Assembly: GCA_024642205.1 (NCBI GenBank)
Contig: JAHEBQ010000032.1
Location: forward strand, 1,129 to 65,128
Reading direction: 5' to 3'
DNA: 64,000 bases
Source of the DNA: Planctomycetaceae bacterium
GTDB taxonomy: Bacteria; Planctomycetota; Planctomycetia; Pirellulales; Pirellulaceae
Positions 40,250 to 63,600 of the stretch are shown here, piece after piece. Each line of letters starts with the position of its first letter. Position 1 is the first letter of the stretch. Below the pieces are notes generated by a model. That model searched no databases, had not been told where the DNA came from, and saw only the letters and a program-made list of their open reading frames with translations. The translations under genes and the position numbers were made by a program.

Positions 40250-43200
40250 TCAGAATATCTTGTCCTTGGCTTCGTCATCATCTGACAACAGCAAATCTAT
40301 CGCTGCTTTCAGCTTTTGTTCCAGATCGCCGGAACTGCCGACTTTCACAAACGCCACGTTGCCCTCTTGATCAATGATCACGGTTTGAGGAAGTGAATGA
40401 ACATCGAACTGTCGTCCGATTGCTCCCGAGTCCAGCGCGACCGGGATTTTCAAATTACGTGTTTCGAGAAACTCCGAAATCTGATCGGCGTCCTCTTCCT
40501 GATTCACTGCCAGAAATGCAACCTGGTCGGATGGATATTGAGCGATCGTCTGTTCAATTTTCGGCAAAGCCTGAACGCAGGGGCCGCACCAGGTCGCCCA
40601 AAAGTCCAGCACCACGACTTTTCCAAGCTGTGATTGCAGCGAAAACTCTTGACCACCGACCAGCGGAGCCGTAAACGATTTCGGCGTTGTTCCGATCAAC
40701 GGTGAACCGCTGCCAAACGCAAATCCGGATCCTCGGTCGCCATTGGCACCGGTTTCCATTTTCGGTGCCGGCGCCAGCCTGGCAACCCAATCCGAATAGG
40801 GAACATCCGTTGCCTGGCTGGCGAACCTGCCGAACCGAAGCTCGTAGATTTGGTCCATCGGAATTTGACACGTACCCAACGCGTTCGACTTGCCCGTCAG
40901 GTTTTCATCGGTCCACGACGCCAGTGCCAGCGTCATTCGGCGCCCACCTTGCATCAGCACCTGTGCCGTTTGCCCGACCGTTTCCTCGGACGGGTCGGAG
41001 AGTGTCTCGATTTTGACCACCTGCGCGGAATCCGCGGTCGTTTCGCCAGGTTCGTCTGGCGTGGAATCAACCGCGGGTTTCCCGGATTCACTGACGGCAT
41101 CTGCTTCGGTGTCGGCAAGGCCCTCGGCGTGCAACCAGACGATGCTCGTCACAATGTCTCGTGGGAAGCGTTGGACCTGGTGGTTGGCGCGAAACATCAC
41201 GTACTGATCGTCCATGGCAACCAATTCACCGCGAAGCATGTCCATGTTGGTGGCACATAGAATCTGCTTCGGTGGGGTTTTTTTCTTGAGTCGCGGGATC
41301 GTTAACAACAGTTCCTTCCGCTGTGGATCGACGAGGATGCCATTTCCCGAATCGGCAAAATTGAGCTTGAAACCGGAAAGCGTGCACTTGATGTTCTGCT
41401 GATACATGTCAGTAAGTTTGAACTGGACGCCTCGACCTCGATTCGAATTCGAGGGTACTTTTTCCGAGTAGGCATTCTTTCCGTTGACGGTGACAAAAAT
41501 ATTTCCTTCCTGAAATTTGAATGCGAACTTGGCTTTGTTGTTCCTGACCGGGATCATTCCATTGGCAGGATTGGCCTGACCCGGATTGCATACGAAGAGG
41601 TTTTCTCCATACAGCATGATATTGATCTTTTGGCCCCCTTCGGCAGACTCCGCGTCCGTGATCAGGGTCCGGCATTCCAGAACGCCGTAGCTGTTACTAT
41701 TCCAGGCTAGATCAAACTCAAAACCGCCGCTGGAGAACAGCCAGGGATGCCCGAATTCGCCGTTCTTGGATACTTCCATTTTCGTGCCAGCCACTTTGAC
41801 TTTGGCTTTGGAGGCCTCGAGAATGACCCACTCTCTGTCGCTGACCGTCACTTCTTCCCCAAGGGCGATGTTACGAAAGTCGATCGCCTTGACCCGATTC
41901 TGATCAATCTGTTTAATTTCGGTAAACGATTCAATGGTAACGGCACGTTCATCCATGCCGACAATGTGACAGGGGATCGTGTCCCGGTTGGTCAAATACA
42001 GGGTGTCGGCCCATTGATCTGCAACGGCGACGATCGCCTGTTTTTTCTGCAAAACGATCCGCGCGTCGCCGCGGGAAAGCGGAACTGCCGATTCGGCTCC
42101 CGCGACCCGCCATCGCAATATGTCGTCCTTGCCGCCGGTGCCTTTTTCCAGGCGACCCTGGATTTCACCCGCGTTATTGAACAGTCGGTTCGTAAATGAT
42201 TCAGCTCCCATGGCGCTGGATGCCGGTGTATCAAATCGGAGCCGAGTTGCGCCTGTGAGCTTGTACGTGATTGGCTCATTTGCCAATTCGGTCTTCATCG
42301 TGATCGAATCGCCTTCAATGGAAACAAACTCGCCACTGGCGTACATGCCGTCATGGAACTTCAACCTCGTTCGCCCTGCAGGCCGTTGCTTGACGCGGTT
42401 TATCAAGAATGCTCCACAGAACCGGTCAACGGCAACGGTCGTAGGTAATCCCGGTTTACCATCCCTGTCACCGTCCTGGTCTGGCGTTGAAATCACCCAC
42501 TGCGTTCCATCAAAGGACTGAACCGTTCCATTGATGGCAGCTTCGTCGAGCGTCTGGATCGAGGGTTCGGTTGCGTTGAATCCTGTGGCGGACCGCCGGA
42601 TCATCAATGAGGTCATTTTCAAATCTCCCGATTTGTTTTCGATGTAAATCCCGGGATCGATATTGGAAGAGGGCTTTCCCAGGTCCGCCATCGCCAGCCG
42701 CTTCCCTTGTTCGTCATGGATGACCAGTGTGTCAAGTTTGCGATCCCAGTGAATCAGGAACTTCATTCGTTTCGTATCACCATTGCTGGATTCCATCACG
42801 ATTTCAAAATCGTCGTTGAAACTCAGCACGATCGAATCGTCCCATGACTCCAGTCGCGGAAGCGATTCGATCTTGCGCGAATTGCGGGGCACTCCAAATC
42901 CAAACGTGAAATCCAGCTTCTTCTCCCATTCCAGTTCGACTTCGATCAAAGCGGAATCGGGCAGCTCGGTTTTCAGGAATAAATGAACATTGCTTCGCAG
43001 GCTTTCCAATTGCCCCAGTTCGTTAACCTTCCAATATTTTTTTTCGCTGCGATTGGCGTCCCATTTATCCAGATCAAACTCGCCATTGATCAAACTACCG
43101 GAGGTTTTCAGATTGAGAATGGATGCGACTTGAGCACGATCGACATCAATTACACCAAACCTGGGCGACGAGATACTCAATACGCGATCATCCAGTCTTG

Positions 43201-43582
43201 TAATTTCACCGAATAGGCTGAACCCATCGATCGTCTGAATCGAGTAAGTCTCGCTGGTCTTGCTCCACTGGGTCCCGGATTGGAACTGGATCTGGTCAAG
43301 GTAAGCCAGGTCCAGGTTGAGCGGATCTCGAAACAAGCTGGTCTGCCATTTCAAACGGGAACGAGTTCCCGAGACAACATGCCCGGGAAGCTTGTCACCA
43401 TTTTTCCAGGTCAGTTCGCCGTTGAAAGGATCATCCGGGACACGGGATTCCTGTGCGGCAGAACGGTTCGCCGCCAGGCAAACCAGGGCAAGAAAAAACA
43501 TGGCCTGGAACACCTGCCAGGGAAAGTGCCCGCATCGCAAGCGGGTCGAATTTGTCATCGATAAGATCCCGTTTCGTTTCAT
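40250..43582 (-). CDS. Large exported protein with repeated small beta-barrel modules and C-terminal TlpA/thioredoxin domain
   Basis: Signal/TM N-terminus; about 8 copies of a LxxxNGDxLxGxLxxxD...IPxxxIxxIxF-type module; C-terminal GKVVVLDFWATWCGPC...PQTVIIDQEG. Confidence 0.88.
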   Translation of the reverse strand: MKRNGILSMTNSTRLRCGHFPWQVFQAMFFLALVCLAANRSAAQESRVPDDPFNGELTWKNGDKLPGHVVSGTRSRLKWQTSLFRDPLNLDLAYLDQIQFQSGTQWSKTSETYSIQTIDGFSLFGEITRLDDRVLSISSPRFGVIDVDRAQVASILNLKTSGSLINGEFDLDKWDANRSEKKYWKVNELGQLESLRSNVHLFLKTELPDSALIEVELEWEKKLDFTFGFGVPRNSRKIESLPRLESWDDSIVLSFNDDFEIVMESSNGDTKRMKFLIHWDRKLDTLVIHDEQGKRLAMADLGKPSSNIDPGIYIENKSGDLKMTSLMIRRSATGFNATEPSIQTLDEAAINGTVQSFDGTQWVISTPDQDGDRDGKPGLPTTVAVDRFCGAFLINRVKQRPAGRTRLKFHDGMYASGEFVSIEGDSITMKTELANEPITYKLTGATRLRFDTPASSAMGAESFTNRLFNNAGEIQGRLEKGTGGKDDILRWRVAGAESAVPLSRGDARIVLQKKQAIVAVADQWADTLYLTNRDTIPCHIVGMDERAVTIESFTEIKQIDQNRVKAIDFRNIALGEEVTVSDREWVILEASKAKVKVAGTKMEVSKNGEFGHPWLFSSGGFEFDLAWNSNSYGVLECRTLITDAESAEGGQKINIMLYGENLFVCNPGQANPANGMIPVRNNKAKFAFKFQEGNIFVTVNGKNAYSEKVPSNSNRGRGVQFKLTDMYQQNIKCTLSGFKLNFADSGNGILVDPQRKELLLTIPRLKKKTPPKQILCATNMDMLRGELVAMDDQYVMFRANHQVQRFPRDIVTSIVWLHAEGLADTEADAVSESGKPAVDSTPDEPGETTADSAQVVKIETLSDPSEETVGQTAQVLMQGGRRMTLALASWTDENLTGKSNALGTCQIPMDQIYELRFGRFASQATDVPYSDWVARLAPAPKMETGANGDRGSGFAFGSGSPLIGTTPKSFTAPLVGGQEFSLQSQLGKVVVLDFWATWCGPCVQALPKIEQTIAQYPSDQVAFLAVNQEEDADQISEFLETRNLKIPVALDSGAIGRQFDVHSLPQTVIIDQEGNVAFVKVGSSGDLEQKLKAAIDLLLSDDDEAKDKIF

Positions 43583-43859: not shown

Positions 43860-44930
43860 TCATCGCTCATAAATCGGCAGGAATCGGTAATTCAGCGCCA
43901 TCGCTAACAGCGACATGCTCGTCGAATACGCCGGCCCATGGTCGCTGTTCCCGATCTGACCGTCTTCCGATTGCAGATTGCGTAACTCTTGAATCGTATT
44001 CTGATTCCACTGCTGCCACGATTCATAGTCGGCTTGAAACAGCGCCTGGGCTTTATAATACCGTTCATAGTACGGCCAGCTCTGGTTGGCACTGAGGTCG
44101 AGGTGGTCAGCCAGGTATTTCCGGGTCCCCTCCAGTTCGCCCCAGGACTTGCGTTTCCCAATCGAAAACACCAGGCAGGCAATCGAAGTTCTTGCGCCTG
44201 ACTCGCCCAACCCACCAAGCCCACTGTATCCGACCTCGCCCGATTCGGCAGAAGTCATGGACTTCATGTAGTCGAGCGCGTCGTCAATGGTCTTGTCCGG
44301 AACGTCGATCCCGGCGTTACGAGCCGCCAGCAGTCCCATCAGGACCGCGCCCACCACCGACGTATCTGCCGAACCGTCGTTCGGCGAATATCGCCAGCCC
44401 TTGCTGGGGTTTTTTTTCTGTGACGACACAGCCAGTCGAACGGCCAGTTCCAGGGCCTCGCCAATCGATCGTTGTGCCTCCGATTTTTCTTCACCCGACC
44501 AGAGCATTTCCTCGTCGACGGCTCCATAGGCCTCGGACAAAGCCAACATTGCAAATCCGTGCACGTACATGTTGCCGGGAATATACCCCGTTTGCGCTTT
44601 TTGATTGCGGATGATATAGCGAATCGCGGCTCGCACATTCCGGGCGTAACGACCAAAGTTCGGATCTTCGCCGGTCGACAGAAACGCCATCGTCGCCAAC
44701 GCACAGATTCCACACGCTTCGTCGCCATGAAATTGCTGACCGGCTCCCCAACTCCCATCGGTGCGCTGCGATTTGGCAAGATACTCCGCTCCCTTGAGGT
44801 AAATCGTACTGACTCCCGCAGGAATCCCCGTCCCTTCATGAAGCTCCAGTTGTTCAAGCTGCCCATGGCCAGCCTGGGGGACAAGCCAAAGGACAAGCGA
44901 AGCAAAAACAGTGGGCAGGATTGGTTTCAT
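43860..44930 (-). CDS. Prenyltransferase/squalene-oxidase (PFTB) repeat protein, secreted
   Basis: Signal peptide from ATG 44930; YLAKSQRTDGSW, GNMYVHGFAMLALSEAYG, KGWRYSP, DTSVVGAVLMGLLAARNAG, YYKAQALFQ, QSEDG, FLPIYER. Confidence 0.9.
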   Translation of the reverse strand: MKPILPTVFASLVLWLVPQAGHGQLEQLELHEGTGIPAGVSTIYLKGAEYLAKSQRTDGSWGAGQQFHGDEACGICALATMAFLSTGEDPNFGRYARNVRAAIRYIIRNQKAQTGYIPGNMYVHGFAMLALSEAYGAVDEEMLWSGEEKSEAQRSIGEALELAVRLAVSSQKKNPSKGWRYSPNDGSADTSVVGAVLMGLLAARNAGIDVPDKTIDDALDYMKSMTSAESGEVGYSGLGGLGESGARTSIACLVFSIGKRKSWGELEGTRKYLADHLDLSANQSWPYYERYYKAQALFQADYESWQQWNQNTIQELRNLQSEDGQIGNSDHGPAYSTSMSLLAMALNYRFLPIYER

Positions 44931-45018
44931 GGAAGTCGGAGTTTGCGTGGTCGGAGCTTGCGTGGTCGGTGTTCGGAGTCGGAATGGACCGGGTTTGGTT
45001 CGATCCTCGGACCATTGG

Positions 45019-46056
45019 CTATTTTGCGTAGATATTGAGCAACGCTTTGACCGACCTGGCGATGGTTTCGAGCGCTCGGTCAATCAGCAACAGGAGGTTA
45101 CTTTCCTCGATCGCCACGCCTCCTCGAACAGCGACCCCTTCGTCTTCCATCCCCATCATTTGACCAATTTCTTTCGAGGGCGCGATGAAAATTTTCCATT
45201 TTTGCAATTGCGCAGGCGAAAGGACTTCCTTCAATTTCTTCGAATCTGCCTGGGAAGCGTAATAATACAGCACGAACGGTTCGTAAAACGTGAAACAGGA
45301 AATTTCCGCTTTCTCCATCGGCGGCCGGATGATTTCCGCCAGTTTGATCCGTTGCTCGCCAGTCAGTCCAAGTTCAATGGTCAGCGAACCCATCGCCGAA
45401 TCGATCAACGCGTTTCGCTTGGCGGCTTTGCGATCCTGTCTATACTCTCGGAATTTCTCCAACTGGGCGTCGGTCAAGACATTGCGAAGGGTTGATTGCC
45501 AAAACCGGTGATCCAGCGGATCGTCGAATTTGAACGGATTTCCCATTCCATTCATCATGATCATCTGCAGCGTGTTCTGATCGATCTCGTCCGCGTCGTT
45601 GATCTGGATTTCTTCCTCTTCCGCTGTATCTGATTCGTCATCGACCTGTCCACCCTGCTGGACAAGCCCCCTCTGTTGGCTCGTCTGCTTGTTCCATTCA
45701 GCCGTCAATTTCTTGACAGCGCCTTTGGCACCGATCCGCAGTTTGGTGATCTGTTTTTTGTCCAGCTTGCAAATGTTTTGAATCTCTTCGACTTCCACCA
45801 GGAAAATCTGGGTCAATTGAAATCGCTTGGCCGCCATCATCCGGCGGGCTTCCATGCCGGGGAGGCCGACAACTTGCACCGCCATAACGGCTTCTGCCTC
45901 CTCGACGACCTCGTCCTGAATTTCCGAGGCGACGCCCGGTTCGACGTCTTGCGCCAATGAGAATATTGGCATCCCTGAGCCGCTTACCGCGGCGAACAAG
46001 CAGATCAAGGTCGAGAAACCGGTTCGTCGGGTAATGTCTTGAATTAAGAACGACAT
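45019..46056 (-). CDS. Secreted acidic/helical hypothetical protein with LTXXQ-like motifs
   Basis: AAAGGA RBS; signal-like N-terminus; LDKKQITKL, VLTDAQLEKF, LGLTGEQRIKL, VLSPAQLQKW. Confidence 0.75.
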   Translation of the reverse strand: MSFLIQDITRRTGFSTLICLFAAVSGSGMPIFSLAQDVEPGVASEIQDEVVEEAEAVMAVQVVGLPGMEARRMMAAKRFQLTQIFLVEVEEIQNICKLDKKQITKLRIGAKGAVKKLTAEWNKQTSQQRGLVQQGGQVDDESDTAEEEEIQINDADEIDQNTLQMIMMNGMGNPFKFDDPLDHRFWQSTLRNVLTDAQLEKFREYRQDRKAAKRNALIDSAMGSLTIELGLTGEQRIKLAEIIRPPMEKAEISCFTFYEPFVLYYYASQADSKKLKEVLSPAQLQKWKIFIAPSKEIGQMMGMEDEGVAVRGGVAIEESNLLLLIDRALETIARSVKALLNIYAK

Positions 46057-46265
46057 CCGTTTTCCTTTGTGGCGTGATTCGTAGTGTTCTGTCTCAGCCA
46101 GGAATACAGGTCGGTCGTCGTGGACGAGGCTACGAGTCCTGGCGTTTGCTTGATCAAAAGGTCTTACGACCTCATCCACAACCCAAAAATCAAATCTTGT
46201 CGCGTCAAGAGACGTAAGCCGCGTGCGCTATTCTCTTGAGCCTGGTGATTTTGGAAGCGACTCTC

Positions 46266-46623
46266 GTGAGCCTCAGGGGCCCATGGTGCTTACTTTAGCC
46301 ACGGATGGGCCGATGGCAATGTGCCCATGGCGTCAGCCCTTGATTTTCGGCACAGAAACGACCAGCTCAAAATATACCTCGTTTTGTCGCGCCTTGCATG
46401 CGTGGCTCTTTCGGTTTCGGACACCGTTTCGTGATCCCTTGGAGGATCAACAGGGAACAATCATGTGGCATTGCTTTCCGAGAAATAGCGCACATTCACG
46501 CAGTCAAGGGCCACAGACCCGTCATGCCCCGCCAAGTTGATTGGCTGTCCAGAAGATGTTTTTGATCCATCGATCCGAAAACCGGGCTGAAGCAATATTG
46601 ACGGGTTGGTGTTATAGACTCGC
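46266..46623 (-). mobile_element. REPIN/MITE-like element, copy B (reverse orientation, truncated)
   Basis: Reverse complement aligns with copies A and C; 50-nt hairpin variant at 46465-46514; REP end GTGAGCC at 46266; stops 13 nt from the stop codon at 46637. Confidence 0.75.
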
Positions 46624-46636
46624 GGCTTGACGACGG

Positions 46637-49600
46637 TTACTTGCTCGGCTCCTGCTCGACGTTTCCTTCCAACGCTTCGAAATAGCGATCCAAACCGGTG
46701 CGGAACTCTTCGGGGAGCTCGCGGCCCGATTTGCCGGTTGCCTGATTCGTTTCGCGCTCGACAACATTGGCCTGTTTTTCTTGCGAATCACCCAGCAGTG
46801 CCAATGCCGACGCTGTGTAATTGGCACCCGATCGACTGCCGCCGCCCGGATCCGATCCTCCACCGCCGCTACCACTGCCGGCTCGTTTGGCCCTCAGCAG
46901 CCACTCGATCGCGTCGGTCTCGGCAGCAATTGCAGGTGCCCCGGTGTCGAAGCCCGCCAGGATTTCTTCGGCGTCATCCATCGCTTTGGCGGCGTTGGTC
47001 AACTGCGCGATCTCTTTGGCAAATTTCTGTTCGCCTTCAGGCAGTTCGTAAATTTTCTCAATCACCTCTGTCGTACGATTGGCCAGCTCTGCCTGGGTAA
47101 TCGAAAGTTCATCTGCCGAAGCATTGAACTTTTCATTTTTCATTTGGGATCTGGCTTGTTCCAAGCCGCGGGTTTCTTCCCGCAACGAAATCTCTGCGGT
47201 CAAGATTTTCATCACTTCCAACACCAGCGAGGGTGGCAAACTGCCACCTTTTGAGCCCGGTCACGAGCCCCCCTTTCAGCCAGGGCCGACCAGCTGTTCC
47301 GCCCAGCGGTCAAGAGTATCGGCCAGGAATTCCGAATGGGCAATCGACGTTCCCGGTTCGTTTGCGACCATCCGATCAGCCACCACGTTGACTTGCTTGA
47401 CCACCTCGATCTCACGCATTTCGGCGAGCACTGTTTTGAATTTTCCTTCCTGGATACGGTTGGAATACGCCTCCAGGTCGTCTTCGATATGCTGCAACGT
47501 CTGGCCGTGCGCCTTTTGCCGATCAGCCAACAGACTCATGCGTTCCACGGTCGCAGCTTTCAGTTCCGAGTGACGGGCACCAAAACCGGTCAACGTCGAC
47601 TGGTTGACGTCATTGGCGATCACGAGCTCGCGTCGCGACATCGCTTTGAGCCGTTTGACAAACGTGCTTCCTTCGAGATTGGCGATCAACTTTTGAAGTT
47701 CTTCGGCAACTTTCTGGAATTCCGCCAACAACGCTTCCTGCGACTCGATGGCCTGGTCCATCTGCTGGCCCGCCGGGCACGAACCGCCCCCCTGTCCCGG
47801 TGAGTTGTCCGCCAACACCACAGCCGGCAACGTGAATTTTGAGGCCTTGGGGGCTGAAGGTTCGGCAGCTTCGTCGCCCGGCTGTTTGTCGTCTGGTTGA
47901 TCCATCGATGATTCCTTCATCGAGATCGAAGGGGGTTTTTCATTTTCGTCCGGTCCGTTGGCACCCGGTTTCGACTTCGGCGGCTGCTGGCCGGGGATCG
48001 AGGGGTTATCGGAGACCGATTTGGACGGCGATCGGGAATTTTGTTCCGCAGGGCCAGCCGACGCCGCGGCCTCGGAGGCCTTCTTCAGGAGGTCGGACAC
48101 CGAGGGCATCCGGTTCTCATGGATATCGTTCAAACTCTGGATCATCTCAGCCAGTTTTTCCAGATGGTCGACGCCGAAATTCTCGTTGCGAGCCGCTTCC
48201 TTGATCAGTTGTTCTCCCGCATCGGTCAGCGCACTGAGACGGCGAGCCTGGGCACGTTCCGCCGCGGCTTGAGATTCAATTTTGCGACGCGTCTCCGGGC
48301 GATCCAATTCGTCGGGTGGCAAGTTCCGCAGTTCAACGTTCTGTTTGTACAGCTGCTGCTCCTGCTCGTAAGTTTCGAGCGATTGCTTGAACCAATCGTT
48401 CAGCCGCCGCGTCATCCAGATCGCATGCTCGTCTTCACTCAGAACGTAGACAGTGTATGGCTGCGAATAGACCCGCTCGCGATCCGGGAGGTAGTCTTCG
48501 GCGAACAATCTCAGTTGAATGGTTTGCGGTGCGATTTTTTCGCGCTGCGGAGAAAACGTGGCAGTGATCGCGTTGACCTCCGTGGCTTCCGGGTTTCCGG
48601 CATATACGATTTTGTCACCCTGGGCCGGTTCATCGGCGGATGTTGCTGCCGGTTTGCCCGTCCATTCCATTCCAATTGTTTTCACACCGTAATCGTCTGA
48701 TGCCTCAACTTCGAATGACAGTACATCGTTGACCATCACCACGCGTTGTTGTTCCAGCTCGCGACAGACCAGCGATGGGGCCTCATCTTCGGCCGACCGA
48801 ATTTTGAGTTTCAACGGTGACTTGGCGGTCAAACCCAGTGCATCCCGCCAGGCGAGCTCCAGCGTCCTGGTTTCCGACAACAGAACCGGGTTGGTCACGA
48901 TCGTTTCGCCACTGACGTTCACCGATTCCCCATCGACGGTCGCGGACGTCAGCGTCCGCGTCGCGGTCGCTTCAATCGCGATTTTGCTGCCGCCGACGAC
49001 CGACATCCCGCCTCCGCGAAGCTCGCGCCGAACCGGTGTCGTCCGTTGCAGGTAATCGGGCAGCGTGATCAATGCTGCCAGGGATGCGAGTTCTGGTCGC
49101 GGCTGAGGATCGATCTGAACGTTCTCCAGCACATCGCCGATTCGCAGTTTGACCTGGGCTGGCGATTTGAACGGGGGTAAGTCAAATTTGTAATGGCGGT
49201 CGTTGAGTTTCGAATCAACTCGGTGGCTTCCAATCCAGGCTGACCCTGAATCGGGATTCCATCGGGACGATTCGGTGAGTTTTGCGTCAAGCTCGATTTG
49301 TTCGGCCAGCGGAACAATCATTTTCTCCGGCAGTGTGTCGACTTGCGTAAACGTATACCGGTCAATGCTCTTCCAGGGCATGATCCAGCGCTGCAGCGCA
49401 TTGGATCCGGCAGCGGGAACTACCAACAGGGCCGCGGCAGATAGTGCCAATGGCACGCCCGCGATCAAGGCCCATCGACGATGGCGCGGGTGCGGGACAT
49501 CATGGAGGAAGTCCTTGTCTGCGGTTTCACGATCGGCTTGGGCGAGCGCCGCCCGGCACAGGGATTCGCTACTGCCATCCAGGTTCTGGGTATTGACCAG

Positions 49601-49948
49601 TTCGATGATGCCCAGCAGGTAATCGCCCAGTCGCGGATGCTTGACTTTGAGCATTCTGGCAACCTGTTCCAGCCGACGGCTGTTCCAGATCCAGCGATGG
49701 CAGACCAACGGAAACCAGACCGCCAGCCCGATGGCCCCGGTTAACAGAATCGCCCAGCGAAGCCAACCGCCGGTATCATAGACTCGGTCGAGGGCAAACA
49801 CCACGAGGTAGGAAACCAGCAACCCGAACGCCGCGGCGCAGAGTCCTTCGGCCAGCTTGACCATCCAGATTCGTCGCTGGAATTTCTCCAATTTGAATCG
49901 AATGCGTTCGGGAATCTGAAGTCCCGGCTTTCCTGCAATTTGGCTCAT
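46637..49948 (-). CDS. DUF4175-like membrane-anchored coiled-coil protein with two in-frame UGA codons; candidate selenoprotein (U891, U896), 1103 aa
   Basis: ORFs 47276..49948 and 46637..47239 are the same frame: GAA CAG CTG GTC GGC CCT GGC TGA AAG GGG GGC TCG TGA CCG GGC TCA AAA GGT GGC AGT TTG CCA CCC; no other stop in 3312 nt; three N-terminal TM helices, Ig-like middle, coiled-coil C-terminus. Confidence 0.8.
47232..47248 (-). promoter_or_regulatory. Putative bacterial SECIS stem-loop
   Basis: mRNA GGUGGCA-GUU-UGCCACC: perfect 7-bp stem, loop starting with GU, stem begins 12 nt after the second UGA; loop is 19 nt from UGA2 and 34 nt from UGA1. Confidence 0.7.
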
Positions 49949-50385
49949 GCACGGATCCTATTAATAAACACAAGTCACCAACCAACGCTGATCCTTCCAG
50001 GGAACCATGTCTTTAATCCCAATCTTACTCTTAATTGCACTCTCAATCCTACACCCAATCCGCCAGCCGGTCGTCCGCCACCGCCACGAAAAACCGATCA
50101 AACGTGACCCAGTTTCGTTTTTTCATGTTGTCATTGGAAGTTATTCCACGTTCGGTGACAAAGTCGCACTTGAGATCCTGACGTCTGAGGTCCGGTTTGA
50201 AACACAAGTTTGGAATAGGAGGTAACGGAGGGACCGGGAATTTGAGGACAGGACTTTTCTTTGACGGCGCAAACCAAAACCAGGGTTCGTCACCACCGTC
50301 CTGCGCCTTGAAACTCGACGGAGTTTCAAAACCTGAGCCGTCGGCGTAAGCCCAATGGCGATTACTTTGGATTCCAGATCCCCCT

Positions 50386-50511
50386 TCGGGCGACAACAGT
50401 CGGGCAACAGCAATTGGGCGAAATCATTCGGGCGACAACAGTCGGGCGAAATCAATCGGGCGAATTCATTCGGGCGAATTCATTCGGGCGAAATCATTCG
50501 GGCGAAATCAA
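50386..50511 (+). repeat. Tandem repeat, 9 x 14 nt (TCGGGCGAAATCAT consensus)
   Basis: Counted units at 50386, 50400, 50414, 50428, 50442, 50456, 50470, 50484, 50498; no spacers. Confidence 0.92.
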
Positions 50512-50676
50512 GTTACCGTTTGCGGGCGCCCGCTGGATTTACTCCTTTGTTTCGGGCAACCCAAACGTCCCGAAGTCAAGCGAGCCTGTGTCTCCAAGCC
50601 GTCATTTTATTTCAGCATGGTTTTCCGATCGATGCATCAAAGACATCTCCTGGACCGTCACTCAATTCGGCGCATA

Positions 50677-50787
50677 TGGCCATTCACTCCGTATGTGGCC
50701 ATTCACTCCGTATGTGGCCATTCACTCCGTATGTGGCCATTCACTCCGTATGTGGCCATTCACTCCGTATGTGGCCATTCACTCCGT
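50677..50787 (+). repeat. Tandem repeat, 5 x 19 nt TGGCCATTCACTCCGTATG plus a sixth copy forming the hairpin left arm
   Basis: Five identical units 50677-50771 leading into GTGGCCATTCACTCCGTGAA...TTCACGGAGTGAAATGCCAC. Confidence 0.92.
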
Positions 50788-51621
50788 GAATGTGCGCTAT
50801 TTCACGGAGTGAAATGCCACTTAAGGATCAGGTCGCCGTGTCCAAAAACAAAAGAGCCGCGCACACAGGTCATGTCAAAACCAGGCTTGATATGTCCTGG
50901 TCATCTCCGTGTCGAAAAGAAACGACTGACGACTCGGACTCACGCCCGTTGTCCAACCTTGGCCAAAGCAAGTGCCATTGCGCCAACGCCCAACAATTCA
51001 TTGAAATCCACATTTTGAAATCCCCTCGAACTCATGTCCTTTCTTCTGTTTCCTCCAGTTCAAAACCCGTCGTTCGCGGATCGCGATTGCAGCAATTCAA
51101 CAGCTAACAGTGACGCAACCTTGAGAATCCGATCAGCACCGGGTCCTTTGTGACATGTCCGTGCACCTAACGATCGAACCACAAGGCCGTTGATCTGGCA
51201 CTTCGTCCGGGCGTTCCGCAACCTGCGATTGTTGTTTTGCACACCGACCCATCCGCCGGATCAAAAAGCCAACCGTTGTAGTTGAAAACCTGTCAATGGG
51301 GAAGACAATCTGTCATTTTATTCTGCAACTGGGGAAGCCTATTGGGGAAGGCTTAGGCGCACTGACTCGCTTTGCCAGCAAATTTCGGCCAAAAAACGCC
51401 CGATTTCGCACGGTTTCGTGCGGACTTGTGCGGCTTAAATGAATTTTTCCGATTCAGTAAATTTTGCTTGAAAATTACTTGCGTGATATTGAGGTCCAAA
51501 TAAGATAAGTCTCTGCACGCCTCGCGCAAGAGAAGCATCCTGCTTCGTGCGCCTGACTTTAACTGCGATAATCAACAGGTTTTTTTCCAAGTCACTTCCA
51601 AGAATCCACGAGGGCTCTTCC

Positions 51622-54600
51622 ATGTTCCGACGCAACAGCCGCTTATTTTCATCGATTTCACGTCACAGTCGTCGAGCCGCTAAGGCCTTGTTGAGAACCC
51701 ATCGTTCTGACGCCAAGTGGATGGCGAGTTACCGGGAGCGACAAAGTCGCGTTGCACGATGGAAGTCAGCGTTCTCGTTCGTCCCGCTTAACCTCTCACG
51801 CTTCCGCGCGTTCTGGGCCGCCATGACCACTCTCGTAGCCCGCATGATTCCGACGGTGAGGGTACCCGCAGCGGTCTCCAAAGGCCGCAACACAAACGGT
51901 TCGCGAGCCGGTTTGAAACTGGCGAACGCGATGGGATATGAGAACCTTGAGCCACGGCAACTGTTGGCGGCGCTGCCATTGAACGGTGGATTTGAGTCGG
52001 TATTCACGGGCACGACGGATGACTGGCACTCTCATGGCGGGAGTTCGGGCCAGAGTGGGTCCGTATCAGATTATCTGAACAGAATCACTCCTCAGCTCAC
52101 CGAGGGTTCCTATAAAGGCGTTATAAATATTGGCGGGAATCTTGATTCTGTCGATTATGGTAATACGGCCTTTTCTGATGTGTATTCTTCGGATCATTTT
52201 TCCGGGGTCATGGGAGCCGATTTTTCGCTGGAATATGATTTTAGTGCATATAGCGATAGAGGTGGCTATTCGGCAACGCTGGTTGGGCCGTCGACGTCGA
52301 TTGTCCTCAAAGCAATGAGTTCAAGTGAATTCGCCTCTGGTACGGGCGAGAGTGGTACTTATTCGGGTTTGCTCCCCGAAACCGGTGAATTTCATTTTGA
52401 ATTTCAGGTCGCTGCCCACGATGCAACCAACGGGGGAGCAATAGGTGCGCGCCTTTATCTGGATGATGTTAAAGTGAACTCTCCGCCGGCAACCACTTTC
52501 GATACCCTGGTAACGGGATCATATACTGAAGCGACATGGCCTGGCATGATCGATGGAACATCCACCGATCCGGACACGCCAACAGAGTTCGACTCGATCG
52601 CCTCCGTTGACTTGACCATTACCAAGTCGACCGGCGAAACCTGGGATGATGGCCTGGGTATGTGGACAGCCGCTCCCACTTCGACAACGATTACCGGTGG
52701 AGCATCGCCTTTAAGCTGGTCTGAGGCCTTTCCATTCTCCAACTTCAAGTCCAGCCTCGGTGGTGGAGCCGACATCTATACAATCGTGGCCAACGCCACC
52801 GACTCAAATGGACTTACTGAAACGACCGCCACAGCGGTTGTTACGATTGTCTTGAATGCGGATATCACCGCGGCTACTCCTGGAGCCTATGTAGACAATG
52901 GGGGCATTGCCGGAGGGTCGGACACATTAACAACGACTTCCACCAATCCAACGTTAACAATCTCCGATATTAGTGCCAGTCCAATATTGGGTGGTGGCAA
53001 GAATATCATTCTGGACAACACGTCCGGACTGGGAACGCCTGGTACCTATGACCCTGGTATCGATGGTGTTTATTTCGTTGCCAACCCAACACTTGGAGCT
53101 TCTTTCTCAAGTTCATTGAGTGGGTTCGGAATTACTTCGGCGCTGCCCATCGACACGACGACATATGATTTGTATGAGCAGAATGCCGCGATCAACCTGG
53201 CGGCTGGCCAGCCATTCGTTGGCGCACTGCTTTCGGATGCAATCGAAATCAAGGTTGTTCCGACCTTGACCTTTGGAGTCAACGAAACGGGGCCACAGGA
53301 AGACTTGCTGCCGTCGATCACCTTGATCAATTCGCAAGTCACGTTCTCGCTGGATGTGGCTTCGGCGACCGATACCACCATCACTTATATGATCGGCATG
53401 GCCGGTGACACTGCCACTGCCGGCGTGGACTATGAAGTTGATCCTTCGGACGAGAACTTCAATTTTGCGACTTCAGATCCAAATATCGTTCCGGTTCCCT
53501 ATCCGACCCTTGCGGGTGGAGCCTACATGGGAACGTTGATCATCAAAGCTGGAGTGACGGAACTCAAGCTCGACATCAACATGAAGCCTGACTTGATTTA
53601 TGAAGGTAACGAAAAGTTTACCGTCAAGGTGGTCAGTGTCGACTGCGCGGACGATGCCAGTTCCCCCATCGAAGTCACGATTCTGGACAATGAAGATGGT
53701 TCGGAAGTTTCGATTATGGCCCTGGATAACATCGCAGCTGAGTCGTTCCAGTTCCCGATGGGTAACAGCCTCAATGTCAACGGTTCCGACAGTGGCAATC
53801 CGATTTTCACTGACGACATTGTTTCCAATGACAATGGTGGTACGTCCGTGGATATGGTTCAGGACGCGTTTGAAGCCCCTGTTGGCGGCGGCGAAAACTC
53901 AATCTATATCACTCAGTCCCTGGCTGATGCCTTGGGAACGCCGACTGAAGAGGGGCTCCCCAACGGCGGCATGTTTGGTGCCAATGCGTTTGGCCCCGGA
54001 GCTGTGCTTTCCTACAACGACAACAACGACGGCGTCAATGCTCGGTTGACCTCAGGTGAAATTCCCGATGTGTTCCGGTTCGATGTTCTGGATCAGGAAT
54101 ACTCTGAAATCCACCTCTTTGGTGCGGCAGCCGATGGCCGAGCCCAGGTCAGCGTGCGGTTTTACTACACCGATGGAACCAGTGCGTTGGTAACTCATAC
54201 GTTTGAAGACTGGCGGGCAAGCATCAGTGAATCCACTGATCTTTACAACCTGGTTTCCGGGCGAGACACCTCAGATACCGCGGGAGGCGTTTTGGGTGAC
54301 ACAGAGGACGTGAACATCTACGGTTCGATCTACTATCCCAATCCGCTCCGGACTCTGAAGTTCGTCGAAGTCAGTGTGAACACGAGCGCGACTGACCTGT
54401 CCGGTAACCCGTTTGATGGCGGCACGTTTGCCTTCCTCGGTGCCAGTGGAGTCACCGCCAAGGGAACGATGGGTCAGTATGCCGTGAAACTGGATGTCGC
54501 ATTGGATGAAGATCTGGTGGTCGACATCGATACGACGACCGGCGATGCGGTCAACGGATTGGATTATTACCTTTCGGTCGAAGGGGACCCTGTCAATTTC

Positions 54601-57600
54601 CCCGGTGTATTCGATGTTGATTTGCCGAGCACATCAACCGTTCAGGTAACGATTCCGGCTGGCCAGTTGCAGCGATTGGTTAAATTGACGGTGATCGATG
54701 ACATGATCATTGAAGGTGGATTCGGCGATCCAGGGTTTGGCCACGAAGACGCCACGCTAACGATTGACGCGATAAGTGCAATTCCTGTGGTACCGAATCA
54801 ACCGACCATCGATACCACCGAAGCCACCGTCACCATCTGTGACGACGATGAAGGCAAGGTCCGCATTGAGACAATTAAAGATGCGGCCGAACCTGATGTT
54901 TCCGGCAAAATCAAAGTCACTCTGGACAAAAAGAACACAACCCAAACCGGCGAAACCACCAGCAGTTCCGATACGCTGATCATGGTGGATGTTGGTGGTG
55001 AAGCACTTCCAGGCGTTGATTACCAGACAAGCATTACAAGTACCAATGGCACGAGCGTCGCGACTGCCCAGCGAGTCGACGGTTTCTGGTCACGGAAGTT
55101 TGATCCCGATATCGCCAGCCCAACCAGTTGGGTGCACAATACCGTTCGCAGTGTCGCCACCGGCGGAAAAGAGTTCTACGAAGTCGTCCTGTACGCTGAC
55201 GGAAAAATTCGAGTCGACATCGACCATACCAATGGATTCGATTCACATGTCCGGATATTGGGAGCGACGGCGGTATTCGGTAACAACAACAGCGCGGTGA
55301 CTGATGGGGCGGGTGGAAGCACCAGTCCCCTGGATTCTTTCGGGACAACAGGCGTCCTCACGGCAGGCACCTATTACATCGAGGTTTCGCGGCATACCGG
55401 TCCCGACACTGACCCAACGAACTCAGCCAGGACAAGCGTTTTACAGGCCGGTGATGAGTACACCTTGCAGATTTCAATCGAAAACAACGAAGAAGGGATC
55501 CTGATTCCGGCTGGTCAGACGATGACCATGTTCAACATTGATCCGATCGACGATGACATCGTCGAAGGCGGGCTTGTCAATAACCCAGGCTCCGAAGACG
55601 TGGTCTTCACCATGACCGGGTTCAAATCCCAGGCCGATGGCGACATCATGGTCATGCAGGCCATGTCCTCAACGACCGTCGACATCGTGGACGACGATGA
55701 TGCCACGCTTAAAATTACGGGTACCCAAAACGGTCACGAAGATCCGGAATACACCGATCCACTGGTGAGCGTCGATGGAAAATTCACGTTGACGTTGAGC
55801 GATGAAAGCTCGACCGATACGAAAGTCAAATTCAAGATTGACAATTTCAAAAACACACCTGCGCCACCGACACCGGGAACCGAAGACATTCCGGATGAAG
55901 CCACGTATGGTTACGACTATACGCTTAGCGGCACTGACTCCAGTGGCAATCCGGTTGCTTTCACGGTTTTCACCAGTGGTGCCAATAAAGGCTATGGTTT
56001 CATCACTATTCCCGCTGGTGAAACGGAAGTCTGCATTAACGTCAACGTGATCAACGATAACTTTCTCGAAGACGACGAATTCGTCCGGATCGATGTGGTC
56101 GTCAGTGGCGACAACGTGCTCGATCCGAACATCATGGTAATGCCGGCGGCTGCTGGTATTCCGACGGTGCTGATCGGCGATGAAGATCTCGCGGAAGTCG
56201 CGATCAACAACACCGTCGGAGCCGTCGAAGGGGGACAGAAGGGTGTGTTCACCGTTTCGTTGACACCCGTTCAGTCACCGAGCAATCCGGTTCCGACGCC
56301 GCGAACTTCCGATTCTCACACGGATGTTGAATTCATGTTGATGTTCGCTGACACCGCGCCACAGGCTCAACTGCCGGCAGGGTTGGAAGATGGATCGATT
56401 CCGGATCCGTCCGATTACTTCCACATTACCGTCGGTGAAGGCAATGTGATCTCCTACGACTCGTCGACGGGTATCGGTGTCGTCCGGATTCCGGCTTATT
56501 CTGCTTCGGGCAAAATCCTGGTGACCGCCGTCGATGATACGATGGTCGAGCCGACCGAGTGGATCAAGATCAAGCTGACCGAGGTGATTGATGCCGACTC
56601 GGATGTGGTGGGTGTCAAGGCTGGATTCGATTCGGCGGAAATTCCGTTGTATGACAACGATGAAGCGTTTGTCAAAATTGAGCGAATTCATGATGGCAAA
56701 GAGCCAGACATGGACGGTCAATTCAAGGTCACGTTGGTCAATGCCGCCGGTCAAATGGTCACCACGGGAACCGACGTGGTTGTCTACTATGACACGCTCG
56801 ATTCGTCCACTGCCCAGGCTGGCGCTGCACCGGGGGATGGATTTAACATCGACTACGAAACATTGCCAGGTGAGGTAACGATTCTAGCAGGCGATTCAAT
56901 GGCATTTATCAATGTCCATGTATTGGATGATATTGTCAACGAATTCGACGAAACGGTCGATGTTCAGCTGACCGGAACCGACAATCCTGACCAGATTTCC
57001 GTTCAAACCATGAACGGAATGGATCAGGCTACCGTTTTGATTCAGGACAACGACAGCGTCGTCGTCATGATCGAAGCCTCCGACGCGATGGCTCGCGAAG
57101 CCTCCGATCACGGCCAGTTCAAGTTGTCACTTGTCAATCCCAACGGTGGCGGTCCAGCGATCAGCGACGGACCGATTGTGGTCAATGTAGATGTCGTCCT
57201 GGGGATGGGCCCCAACGCGGATGCCATCGAAGGGGAAGATTATGAATTGTACGTCAATGGCGAATTGACCCATACGGTCACCTTTGGTCCGTTCGAGACG
57301 ATGGCTTTCGTCGACGTGGTAGTGCTTAACGATGCCATTCCGGAATGGAGTACCGAGCAGGTCAAACTGGCCGTTTCCTATGTATCGTCCAACTGGAGTT
57401 TGTGCAGTACGGTCACGGCAGATGATGGAACCGCAATCGTCGACATCAAGGCCGACCCGGCCGTCACGGTTGACTTCTATAATATGATGGGAACCGAAGG
57501 CAGCGACACCAATCCATCGTTCATCGTTCAGCTACCGGAAATTTCCGGTGGACCGATGGATGGCCAATACAACCTGGCCGATGGCGATCTGACGGTCACC

Positions 57601-60600
57601 TACACGGTCTTTGTTGGCGATCCGGTCAACTACGGAACTCCAGGTGCGGACTACACCACGTTGACGGGAACGGTAGTCATTCCACAAGCCGATGGTTATG
57701 CCATCTTCGAAGTGGAAATGTTGGACGACATGACAATCGAACGTGACGAGTACGTATCGATCATGTTGGAGTCGGTCGCACCGACGGTTGGTACTGGTGA
57801 TCCAAACGACGCGGACGTGAAGATCCAGAAGGATCTGTACGGACTGAGGGAAAATGGTCGGTATTTGAGCACCATTGATCCCAATACCGGTATGGAACAA
57901 GAGTCTTTTGCAATTTCGATGGTGGATGGACGCACCAATGGCGATATCGACGGCGGCGAAGGCCTGGCCGTTGATCCGACGACCTGGAAGCTGTATGCGG
58001 TTCTGGAGTTCGACGGCACCTATGAGTTGGTGACGATCGATCCGGCAACCGGTTTGGCCACGACCGTGGGTGTCCTGGGTACCGATGGATCCGATCCAGG
58101 CGATTTCAACATCGACGATATCGCGTTCGATGCCAGCGGAAACCTCTTTGGAATTACCAACAACGATGCTGGACCGACCTCGGCCAACCAGCTGTTTTCA
58201 ATCGACAAGAACACCGCCGCGGTGACAACTGCGTCGGCAGTCCTTACGGGAAGCGAACAAACGATTGCCTACAGTCCTGTTGATATGAAATTGCATCATG
58301 TCGCCAACAACGGGAACCCGGGATACGAAACACTTGGTCCGGCGACGGGAATTCCGTTGTGGGGCTCAAGCCCCTCGTCGTTCTCCACTAATGTGACGGC
58401 GATGGTGCACGCTCAAACGGGTAACTTTGATGGCGATTTCTTCTTCGCTAGTGACGAAAACGGTTATTTTTATACCGTGACCGTTGCAGATTTTGACAAT
58501 GCGGACGGCGACGACGATCCGACGACCGGAACGCTGGAATATTCCGTAGAAAACCAGGGCTTGACCTATTACAACGAGGAAGGTCTCGCGTTCCTCAAGA
58601 GCAATGCTGCGGTCAAGATCAAGGACAACGATTCCGGATTTATCGAGGTCAAAGCCAAACAGAACAAGGGCGATGATCTGCAGGATGGCAGTGTCGATAC
58701 TGGTTTCAACGTCACGATCAAGAAGTTCGTCGATGGCCAGGCCAACGATCCGACCATTTCATCGACGGATACGACGGTCAAGTTCATGGTCATGGATACC
58801 GCGACACCGTTCCTCGGTGATCAAACCGAAGATGAGGGTCAAAGCTCAACGGGTCAAGATATCGACACCTACGGGTCTATGTATGGCGGATACGGTGGAG
58901 CGAATAATTGGTCGCTCAATGGTGCGGGCGTTCCGCATACGGTCGTTAACGGGGTTGGTGACGCAACAAGCGATATGTACACCTTCACCGTGCTCAACGA
59001 CGGCGATGCGGTTGATATCATGGCGACCGGTCCGGTCAGTGCCATGCAGCTGGAAATGGTCGGCGGTAGTGTGGTCGGCACCGGTGGCAGCTCGATTTCG
59101 ATCGCTCACGGAGTATTATCGGCCGGCACTTACAAGCTGACGGTGGTCGCCAGCGTTGGCGCGGATTACAGCGTTGATGTGGCGGTCGAAAATCACCTGA
59201 TCGCTGACTACGTCCTGACCAGCGACAACGAGCTTGTGTTTGACGAAAGCACGGGTCTGTGGTGCATCACCATTCCAGCCGGCGAAGAGTCGGTGATGGT
59301 CAATGTCGAAGTCTTCAACGATACGCAGATCGAAGAAACCGAAGAAGTTTCCCTGTGGCTCAAAACCGTCTCCGACGGTGATGAAGACATCAGCACGGGG
59401 CAAATCTACTTCGCTCAAAATGAATATTACTACTACTATGGGCCTGGGAACAATCCAGGAATTGGAAGAGTTGATGTCGGCGGATCCGGTTTGACCGAGA
59501 TCGTCGACACCCAGTACTACAACGGTTACTACAGCGCTCCGTGGGGAGTTTCGATTGACCAGGCAGAAGGCAAAGTCTACTGGTCGGAAGGTCGTTCAGA
59601 CTACTATGGCTATTCTGGCTATCAGACCGGAATATGGCGATCCAATCTCGATGGCAGCGATGTTGAATTGATTTATGGGACACCGGTGTCGCCGCATGGA
59701 TTGCAAGTCGTTGGTGACCAAGTCTATTGGGTTGATAATACATCGGCCGAAATCTTCCGGATAAACAAGGATGGTAGCGGTTCCGCCCAGTTGATTGTCG
59801 ATGTGAATTTCTATCAGGACGCTTACTATTACGGATACGCGCAGAACTTGACCGACATTGCGGTGGACAACGTTCATGGACGAATTTATTGGACGTCACA
59901 AGACAGTTTTGGCAGTCGTATTTCTTCTTCCAAATTGGATGGCACGGATGTCAAGGTGGTGCTCAACAACACCGACGTTTATTATCCGTCGTCAATCGAC
60001 CTCGATGTGGCCGGTGGTAAAATGTACTGGTCCGACGAGTATTACGGTGTCAGGCGTGCAAATCTCGATGGAACGAGTGTCGAGAGCGTGGCGTACGGCA
60101 ATTATTACAGCGCTCATGGAGTCGATCTGGACTTGATGAATGGCTTCGTTTATTGGACAGAAGGAAGCAATTCAAGCAGTTCCATCTATCGCGCGAACCT
60201 CAATGGACCTTTGCCAACATCGGGAGAGCTTGTCTCCAGCACGCTGTTTTATGGGAACCAAGGTTCTGAAGAACCCCAACATCTCGATCTGTTGATTCCG
60301 ACCATGATTCATGCGACGGTCGAGATCTGCGATCATGATCTTGGTGAGGTGTATGTCGTTTCCGATAACACGGAAATGGAAGCGATGGTTGATCCGGCTT
60401 CTGAGAATCCGCTCAATCACAAGGACATTGTGCTGGGGCTGCGTGACCCGGTTACGCTGACTCCGGTCACCAGCCAGACTTACACCCAGGTGAACTACAC
60501 CTACAAGGCTGAAAGCACAGCGACCAACGGATCGGATCACGCCTTCTTACCCGGCAGTACGTATTTCATGCCTGGCCAAAGTTCGGCTGTGCTTTTTAAC

Positions 60601-63600
60601 AGCTTGAATAATGTTGCCTCCGTCTTTGTCTACGATGACAACTCACTGGAGGGGACGGAATATGTCAAGATCGGCCTGGACGCCGCCGTTGGCGATTCCG
60701 ATATCACGATTGTGGCACCGAATGTTGACATGGAAAACATGGGTGTTGTCAAGATTATCGACAACGAATCGGCGGAAGTTCACTTTGGTTTCAAAGAGGG
60801 CGATCGACTCGATGGCAAGGAACGAGATGGTTCCGTCGACGAGCCGTTGGCACCCGGCAAATTTACGCTCAGCCTGACGCGGACCAGTACCACCGACACG
60901 ACGGTGACCTTTATGGTCGCACCAGGCACCGATGCCGAGCTAAATGATTACACGCTCTCGACGATGAACGCAAGCAACATGCTGACCGATCTTGGTGGTG
61001 GCATGTGGTCGATCAAGATTCTCAAGAATCAGAAATCGGTCATGGTCAATGTAAACGTGAATGATGACAACGTAGTCGAAGTTGACGAAAACCTGAACTT
61101 GAAGATTGTGAGTGTGGTTTCGGGCAACCCGACGGCGAACATTGGTATCGGTTTGCCAAACACGGAAACCGTCACGATTTTTGACGACGATGTGGCCAAA
61201 GTCATTATTGTCGGAACTCAGGACGCGATGGAATCGACTCAGCCCGGCGAAGCTCCTGGCCAGTCCGGTGAATTCAAGGTCTCGCTGGTCGATCTCGATG
61301 GCAACATGATTACCAGTGAAACCTCGACCACGGTCAAAGTGGATGTCGTGTCCGCTGTTTCGGGAACCAATGCGACCTACGGTCAGGATTACATCATCCC
61401 GGGCGCCGTTGAATCCTCGCCCGGTTCTGGTGACTGGCATGTCATTCTCACGTTTGCTCCCGGTGAGTCGATGAAGACGTTAACCGTCCAGTTGCTCGGC
61501 GAAACTCCTCCCGATGGCAATCCCAACACGCCAGAAATCGACATGGGCGAAGAGTTTGTCAAACTGATGCTGGATCCGAACTACGCTCCAATTGCATCCG
61601 GCGGCGATGGTGTCATCGGTGACAACCAGATCCAGCTCGATGTGATGGTACCCGAGGGAGAAGGTCAGGCAGGCTACATTGATTTTGTCTGGGACGATGG
61701 CTCACCTTGCATCGACTTCCAGGTTCCTGGAATGGGCATGAACATGGACGAAATTCAGATCGTCGATGAAACCTTCAAGGTCAATATCTTCGCCAACGAA
61801 GAGAATGGCAGCGAACCGGGTACATTGCCTCTGGGCTCCGGTGAGAACGGCCAATTCCAGGTGACGATCAACAGTCCTTGGAACTTCGGTGATACGATTG
61901 TCAACTACACGATCTCCGGAACAGCCACCACCGCGTCGCTTGCCTCAGGGGCGCTGGACCCGGCCGATTACGAGGATCTGGTTGGATACGATCCATCAAA
62001 TCCAGACTTTGTCTTGGTCTCGATCGATGGCCAGGTAGTCATTCCTGCGGGAGCTGATCACGTCAACATCGATGTGACGGTCCTGGACGATCAATTGATC
62101 GAATTGTTGGAAAACGTCACCGTTACGCTACAAGGTTTCGACTACGAAACAACAACCGGACCGGAAGGCTCGGGAATGGTCGAAAACGCACCAGTCGGTG
62201 TTTACGGCTACCGATGTTTCGTAACCGATTTCCCATCCGCGACGGTCTATATCGCGGATGACGACACCGCGGTCGTTACACCGAACGTGGTTCAAAACGC
62301 GATGGAGCCCGATAACGGTGTCAGCGATCCAGTTAATGACAACGGTCAGATCACGATCAAGTTGCTCGAAGACGGCACTCCGATCATTAGTGATCAACCG
62401 ACGTTGGTGTCATTCGCGATCACGGGTGATGCGATTCTCGGCGGATCAACTCTGGCGGGAGCCGATTACAAACTCGTACTCGATGCCAGCACCGACGGCG
62501 GCGAAGGCTTTGTCCTTACCTATAACGAGGCCACCGGCTTGGGAACCGTTTTGATTCCTGCAGGTGAATCGTGTGTCAAGATCAATGTCATGACGCTTGA
62601 CGACATCATCATCGAGGATGACGAATCGGTCATCCTGACAGTGACCGCTGTCAGTAACGCCGTCAATAATCAACCCGATCAACCCGACCAGATCACGATC
62701 CCTGGTTCACCGGATAACGCCGTGGAAGTCACGATCGCTGACAAGGATGAAGGATTGTTGAAACTGGTCAAGCTGGATGTTTCCGGCAAAGAACCGGGCG
62801 GATTGAATCCGGATGCTTCATTCAGTGTCTACCTCGTTGATGCGGACGGTTCGGGAACGCTGCTGGTCAGTGATTCGGATACCGATGTGACCTACGAAGT
62901 CAAGGACAGCAGCACGGCGACTCCCGATGTCGACTATGTAGCTTTGAGCGGCATGGTCCAAATCCCTGCCTTCACCGGCGGTCTTGGTGTTACGCCAACG
63001 ACTGGCTTCGGTGGCGACGGTCAGGGCGTGATCGAAGTCCACGTGCTGAATGATCTGGAAGTCGAACTCACCGAAACGGTCGCTGTCAACGCCACGGGTG
63101 TTGCCGACAGTGAAGGTGTCCGGTCGATCGAACTGCACTCGATGCCGTCGATGTTGATGGATTCCGTCAACATTCTCGACAACGACACGGCTTTGGTCTC
63201 CATCAAGAGCGATTCAACCAATGCAGACAACGATGTCCGTGAAGGCAATCCTGGTGCTCCGAACAACGGTAAGTTCGAAGTCTTGATGAACAAGATCAGC
63301 ACGACCGATACGGTTGTGACCTTCATGGTGGTCGATGCAGAAACCACGGCCACTTATGGTGCCGGTGTCGGCGGCGACTATACGCTGTCCGGTGCCACCA
63401 CCGTGATTTCTCCGATCATGGGAACGGTCACAATTCTGGCCGGGCAACAATCGGCCATCATCGACTTGACGACCACCAACGACCTGACCCAGGAATCGCT
63501 GGAGAACGTTACGGTCAAAGTTGTGTCGACGAACAATTCGGTCATCACGGTTGATGGTTCGATGGCAAAAGCCACGATTTCGATCAAAGACGATGATTTC

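Follow-up and report, generated by a model that had tools for sequence, protein, structure and literature searches.

We found that two open reading frames (ORFs) in a 64,000-nt stretch of DNA from a marine planctomycete (hereafter the window; all coordinates are positions in it) are very probably one gene on the minus strand, encoding a 1103-residue selenoprotein with both of its in-frame UGA codons decoded as selenocysteine (Sec). We put the probability of this interpretation at about 90%. Sec decoding had been proposed from the letters of the window alone (the sequence-only reading), and it is supported by Cys in aligned homologs, the recurrence of the TGA codons, the ratio of nonsynonymous to synonymous substitution (dN/dS), a downstream hairpin, and the Sec synthesis genes of the host. 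The 890-aa ORF (47276-49948) and the 200-aa ORF (46637-47239) had been described as one frame with two TGAs, and translation of 49948-46637 agrees: both lie in the same minus-strand frame, which runs for 1103 codons with TGA at codons 891 and 896 as the sole interruptions and with no other stop or frameshift in the 3.3-kb gene. The local translation at the TGAs (asterisks) is ...WAEQLVGPG*KGGS*PGSKGGSLPPSLVLEV..., also given as ...LVGPG*KGGS*PGSKGGSLPP... The gene and its two codons are:

46637..49948, minus strand: proposed selenoprotein gene, 1103 codons, for a DUF4175-like membrane protein
47276..47278, minus strand: UGA1, codon 891, read here as Sec; Cys in 43/69 full-length homologs, TGA in the double-Sec clade and in the position-1-only forms
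47261..47263, minus strand: UGA2, codon 896, read here as Sec; Cys in 62/69 full-length homologs, TGA in most of the Sec-form loci

Residues 700-1103 match more than 1,800 homologs, mostly continuous Planctomycetota proteins of ~1090 aa along with some from Verrucomicrobiota. In the alignment of full-length homologs, Cys stands opposite both TGAs at the frequencies listed above; the nearest full-length homolog (60% identical) has GPGCKGGKCPG at the motif, and many others have PAC-xGxCPG or CGQCKG. The sequence-only reading had expected homologs to run continuously through this linker with Cys, and the alignment bears this out at both positions. It had also pointed to an internal copy of the motif with Cys. 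This copy, GGGS-C-PAG, does exist (Cys724, TGC at 47779-47777), but Cys occurs at position 724 in only 10/69 homologs, so we rejected it as evidence for Sec and give it no weight.

TGA within the motif is common among relatives of the gene. Excluding the window's own locus, 19 of the 30 best loci from the same GTDB family (Pirellulaceae, judged by named relatives) have a TGA exactly in the motif, and a scan of named genomes, in which the closest relative was a Mariniblastus sp. metagenome-assembled genome (MAG), found a motif TGA in ~28/75 readable loci. Pooling the loci gave 49/108 Sec forms with a motif TGA, 18 loci with double Sec overall, and 59 Cys or no-Cys forms. Single-TGA forms are spread across Planctomycetota. 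The Sec forms include U-x4/5-U, C..U, Sec confined to position 1 (two genomes, with T or A at position 2), and a lone Sec in GG[ST]-U-[PR]G; in a further form, CGT-U-KG stands opposite CGQCKG. The first motif position is often neither Cys nor Sec in the Sec forms, and from these alignments the reactive residue can seemingly sit at either position. The Cys loop itself varies in spacing and number across loci L020-L129 (CxxC, Cx3C, Cx4C, CxxCxxC, or a single Cys), and some Verrucomicrobia have no Cys there.

In a phylogeny of 105 sequences, the window protein falls in an 18-member clade with 100% support, made up of 15 double-Sec members, two Cys members, and one without Cys. At least 16 changes between Sec and non-Sec forms are needed on this tree. 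As judged from the tree, these repeated Sec/Cys changes are the dynamic exchange typical of selenoprotein families.

The gene is also carried by MAGs labelled Candidatus Kuenenia, Chitinophaga, Akkermansia muciniphila, or Deltaproteobacteria (L068, L073, L077, L093, L106, and L116). On the tree, these six loci group within Planctomycetaceae, Pirellulaceae, or Verrucomicrobiaceae clades, and the taxonomic labels or the binning of the MAGs are probably wrong.

A hairpin resembling a Sec insertion sequence (SECIS) had been noted after the UGA codons, and we found that it fits the published consensus for bacterial SECIS elements (bSECIS) with respect to both UGAs. It is listed here with a smaller hairpin that lies nearer the codons:

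47232..47248, minus strand: SECIS-type hairpin GGUGGCA-GUU-UGCCACC on codons G-G-S-L-P-P; -11.5 kcal/mol
47253..47270, minus strand: small hairpin GGGCUCG-UGAC-CGGGCUC, with UGA2 within its loop

The first of these is a perfect hairpin that begins 12 nt past UGA2, which places its loop 19 nt from UGA2 and 34 nt from UGA1. PMC13188914 (Fig 2) summarises the bSECIS consensus model of Zhang and Gladyshev, which has a loop of 3-9 nt, a stem of 4-16 bp, a G in the first two loop positions, a distance of 16-37 nt from the UGA, and a minimum free energy of -7.5 kcal/mol or lower. With its 3-nt GUU loop, its 7-bp stem, and the energy and distances given, the window hairpin agrees with this model in every published feature for both UGAs. 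UGA1 and the loop are 37 nt apart in the U-x5-U and position-1-only forms, which is the maximum that the model allows and the largest distance in any form.

The hairpin distinguishes Sec forms from Cys forms. Its mean energy was -9.4 kcal/mol in 36 unique Sec-form sequence windows vs -3.2 kcal/mol in 59 Cys-form sequence windows (Mann-Whitney p=1e-14). The SLPP protein motif is common to both forms, and the strong hairpin is confined to Sec forms. Similarly, 48/49 Sec forms encode Ser-Leu by AGT-TTG, and Cys forms use a mixture of codons. Covariation is seen at one stem pair, on synonymous third positions (CG 19, UA 11, GC 3), with both sides changed in 14 cells vs 4.4 expected, a value that no shuffle out of 500 reached.

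Scanning this region with Rfam returned no SECIS family and chance-level matches only. In close relatives, GGCCCUG-GCUGA-CAGGGC can hold UGA1 in its loop, so that small GC-rich hairpins with loops of 4-5 nt occur in the region of 47253-47290. These UGA-holding hairpins may be a by-product of Gly/Pro/Ser codons.

The Sec pathway on which the sequence-only reading depended was found complete in the 6.83-Mb genome (158 contigs). We found selA on contig C125 (475 bits), selB on C9 (380 bits, above cut-off), a tRNA-Sec with anticodon UCA at C54:781-880, and selD at C148:34050-34976 (locus L017, 354 bits). Within selD, too, an in-frame TGA falls on the canonical UxxK site (YASCAG-U-AGK). Hence, since selD itself carries a Sec-type TGA, UGA-to-Sec decoding is in use in this organism. 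Across genomes, selA was present in 18/18 verified motif-TGA genomes vs 4/10 verified Cys-form genomes (Fisher p=6e-4), and adding the unverified cases gave 25/27 for Sec forms and 6/24 for Cys forms. We rejected a genome-wide reassignment of TGA: it is the commonest stop of long frames in this genome, and as the most frequent ordinary stop it is not reassigned.

Several points weigh against the two-Sec interpretation. The Sec-versus-Cys statistics above ignore the phylogeny of the sampled loci. Double changes were seen in one of the seven stem pairs, the others being invariant or mismatch-only, and conservation of the hairpin is partly at the protein level because it overlaps the conserved SLPP codons. 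SelB of Escherichia coli is sensitive to spacing, which bears on one hairpin serving UGAs 15 nt apart, and the small hairpins nearer the UGAs could contribute to Sec insertion. The BatA and VWA genes, which adjoin the gene in related genomes (see below), are on a separate contig, C155, in this genome, and the functional part of our proposal is inferred. Finally, sequence data alone cannot separate Sec from Cys at a UGA.

This last point favours an alternative in which either SECIS-dependent Cys insertion, a possibility already raised in the sequence-only reading, or near-cognate suppression reads through the UGAs. These would then encode Cys, Trp, or some other residue, and the full-length product would be free of selenium. 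Cys is indeed the homologous residue at both positions. However, the genome has a complete and intact Sec pathway including a Sec-type SelD, the TGA forms co-occur with selA, the hairpin matches the consensus for SelB-type SECIS elements, and a single substitution, giving the TGC or TGT found in Cys forms, would be enough to encode Cys. We therefore regard selenium-free read-through as improbable.

The same stretch could also be two genes, with an 890-aa protein that stops at UGA1 and a ~200-aa protein that begins at TTG 47239. Gene callers treat the relatives in just this manner. In four metagenome relatives (~85% identity), the called products have 886-896 aa and end exactly at ...LVGPG, and public annotation splits the gene of relatives into a ~890-aa product and a separate 188-aa gene. 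Yet the DNA of those four relatives has both TGAs at the same codons followed by ~205 open codons to the same C-terminus, and the full-length proteins among the homologs are continuous. The 13 codons from UGA1 to the TTG are in frame and conserved, with the TGAs opposite Cys, and the TTG is a Leu codon inside the hairpin loop. Moreover, none of the 49 Sec-form loci has a frame shift or a spacer of different length. We consider two separate genes very improbable.

To ask what selection has done downstream of the UGAs, we compared the gene with the same four relatives, against which synonymous sites are near saturation (proportion of synonymous differences, pS, 0.65-0.78). dN/dS was 0.05-0.08 downstream of the UGAs and 0.04-0.09 upstream, so the part that would have shown relaxation in a decaying gene is under purifying selection equal to that on the upstream part. 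Hence, because the downstream dN/dS matches that upstream, the C-terminal 207 codons are translated and under selection. In addition, at least 15 independent assemblies, produced by different projects and all within a Mariniblastus-like clade of Pirellulaceae, have both TGAs at identical codons. This recurrence speaks against assembly errors, which the sequence-only reading had named as a refuting condition, and bears out its view that two independent nonsense mutations are implausible; with synonymous sites saturated (pS about 0.7), it rules out chance as the origin of the TGAs. A pseudogene or sequencing error, with two nonsense mutations or two base errors, might be suspected, as the genome is a draft in 158 contigs and the two stops lie five codons apart, but it is effectively refuted by conservation of the TGAs in these assemblies, by the low downstream dN/dS, and by the lack of any further stop or frameshift.

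The two-Sec protein is predicted to be large and mostly outside the cytoplasm. An AlphaFold2 (AF2) model built from the 69-sequence alignment had a mean predicted local distance difference test score (pLDDT) of 82.8. It consists of N-terminal helices, three Ig/MG-like beta-sandwich domains at ~209-503, and a long helical bundle at 505-1022, of which 634-720 form a disordered insert. Helix 865-886 is joined to helix 906-935 by the Sec motif (887-905), a loop modelled with lower confidence, and the Sec placement of thioredoxin folds (helix N-cap; UxxC/CxxU type) was absent from the AF2 model. A Foldseek search of the model against the PDB returned only generic Ig/MG-domain matches (209-503) and nothing for the motif-bearing helical domain. 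Hydropathy indicates three transmembrane (TM) segments at ~32-55, 63-85, and 158-182. K/R residues are abundant at the N-terminus and in the 84-158 loop, so the positive-inside rule places residues 183-1103, including the motif, outside the cytoplasm. Hence, the protein beyond the TM helices, with its Sec loop, is probably periplasmic in this model; the sequence-only reading had likewise expected a periplasmic motif behind three N-terminal TM helices, and hydropathy, positive-inside pattern, and AF2 model all agree with this.

We compared the joined protein with known families and found no match in a Pfam scan at E<=0.01 and none in an NCBIfam scan at E<=1, the selenoprotein models included. 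The 200 C-terminal residues score 21.6 bits against PF13779 (profile positions 650-741), below the gathering cut-off of 27.3, and one homolog carries the UniRef label DUF4175 family protein. The earlier description as DUF4175-like thus stands as a weak resemblance of the C-terminal 200 aa and does not extend to the whole protein; because its PF13779 score is under the gathering cut-off, the protein is only DUF4175-like.

The sequence-only reading had known of no selenoprotein of this kind, and comparison with the published inventory and NCBIfam upholds this. The prokaryotic selenoproteome of 2026 (May) comprises 119 families (PMC13188914 Table 1), and ours is not among them, nor does that table have a PF13779 or comparable entry. 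The families of Haft and Tolstoy 2025, compared by way of this table and NCBIfam, gave no match either. The family was likewise not found in the accessible portions of the text of the deep-Sep and BSepDB papers, and the searchable literature held no report of DUF4175 with a selenoprotein or of a selenoprotein in Bat systems. Kim et al. 2016 (PMC4807772, Table S9) listed a 'hypothetical' split Sec candidate from planctomycete P1, the nearest match of which was a Rhodopirellula Cys homolog; this candidate might be identical with the present family. As judged by sequence, this is very probably a new selenoprotein family with a canonical bacterial mechanism.

In the mechanism that we propose, SelA and SelD would make Sec-tRNA(Sec), and SelB would deliver it to UGA codons 891 and 896. 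Both insertions would be directed by the one hairpin on the G-G-S-L-P-P codons, which can serve both since the consensus SECIS spacing holds for each UGA. The product would be anchored by its three N-terminal TM helices and would present U-x4-U in a flexible loop between two long helices, as the Sec version of the variable Cys loop (CxxC, Cx3C, Cx4C) in homologs from Planctomycetota and Verrucomicrobiota. When selenium is scarce, translation would terminate at UGA1 and yield a product without the last ~210 residues.

The genes around the selenoprotein gene are conserved in order. In 17 related genomes with Sec and Cys forms, the order is BatA-VWA, the selenoprotein gene, a variable slot, a ~400-aa alpha-toroid-like protein, and a TlpA/Redoxin protein; BatA and VWA were found in 15/17 of these genomes and also at locus L004. 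The window has the downstream genes of this order:

45019..46179, minus strand: variable-slot ORF, 386 aa, downstream and co-oriented; no family match, and the slot varies between genomes
43860..45083, minus strand: alpha-alpha toroid-like protein, 407 aa, with a weak DUF6288/prenyltransferase match; downstream in 17/17 genomes
40250..43582, minus strand: TlpA-like exported protein, 1110 aa, with a signal peptide and a C-terminal TlpA/Redoxin domain; in 17/17 genomes

The active site of the TlpA-like protein is WCGPC at residue 999. We infer that the Sec loop is a redox-active or chalcogen/metal-binding site, possibly with a diselenide, and it is possibly serviced by the co-conserved, exported WCGPC protein.

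Both flanks of the selenoprotein gene (46266-46623 and 50333-51000) carry a dispersed non-coding repeat that has more than 20 copies in the genome at 65-80% identity. The same repeat adjoins the VWA gene on C155 (3012-3144), exactly where the BatA-VWA-gene order breaks. Since the repeat sits at the breakpoints, the broken gene order suggests a repeat-mediated rearrangement or an assembly break. Beyond the upstream flank, a giant frame of more than 4150 codons (51547-63999, plus strand) is divergent from the selenoprotein gene and runs off the end of the window.

A wider picture can be drawn, which we offer as speculation and hold to be rather doubtful as a whole. The protein may be a phylum-wide extracytoplasmic selenoprotein, with the Sec/Cys loop as the redox (diselenide or selenylsulfide) or chalcogen-binding centre of a BatA-VWA 'aerotolerance-like' envelope machine, recycled by the TlpA-like WCGPC protein, and with one hairpin driving two insertions 15 nt apart in the Mariniblastus-like clade. 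If it is true, double insertion from one hairpin would mean that the spacing rules of SelB are far looser than in E. coli.

If the two-Sec interpretation is correct, the prokaryotic selenoproteome gains an unlisted and taxonomically broad family. The fold class is unusual for Sec, as a giant membrane-anchored protein with beta-sandwich domains and a helical bundle. The split of the gene by annotation pipelines into ~890 + ~190 aa would be a systematic and fixable error in many Planctomycetota genomes. Furthermore, the Sec/Cys loop and its TlpA-like partner would give the first chemical hint of what the BatA/VWA-type envelope clusters of Planctomycetota do, and this hint points to thiol/selenol redox or to chalcogen/metal handling. 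The double-UGA variant is a natural test case for the reach of a single bacterial SECIS, with the 37-nt limit as the bound of all forms seen.

Compared with known systems, the gene is most like canonical genes that use SelB and SECIS, of which E. coli fdhF is the archetype. It shares with them a UGA at a Cys position, a hairpin just downstream within the gene, whose small loop begins with G and lies 16-37 nt from the UGA, selA, selB, selC, and selD in the genome, and repeated Sec/Cys exchange. Unlike them, it has two UGAs 15 nt apart with one hairpin within range of both, and it encodes a 1103-aa membrane-anchored protein that lacks a thioredoxin fold and belongs to an unlisted family.

DUF4175 (PF13779) proteins and Bat/MoxR-associated envelope clusters (Bacteroides aerotolerance operon) are also close, in that the gene of relatives directly follows BatA (N-terminal domain PF07584) and VWA genes and its C-terminal part weakly matches PF13779; the gene differs from them in its sub-threshold PF13779 score and in having BatA/VWA on another contig in this genome.

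Among proteins with two close Sec residues, TsoB (NF045694; rhodanese/DsbD fusion-like; Haft and Tolstoy 2025, as given in PMC13188914 Table 1) is the sole listed prokaryotic family with UxxxxU, and so shares two Sec residues at this spacing. In contrast, the present protein has no sequence relationship to it (no NCBIfam match at E<=1) and has another domain architecture and neighbourhood. Eukaryotic SelL has UxxU, for which a diselenide was shown (Shchedrina 2007, cited in PMC2398784), and UxxU is also found in the GOS Prx-like 2 family and in a putative mercuric-reductase-like metal-binding protein (NF041115). As in these proteins, a close Sec pair replaces a Cys pair here and could plausibly form a diselenide or a metal/chalcogen site. 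However, theirs are thioredoxin-like or metal-binding folds with a fixed xx spacing, whereas in the present family the spacing is 4-5 residues and variable, the first position is dispensable in many relatives, and the Sec pair would lie in a loop between helices.

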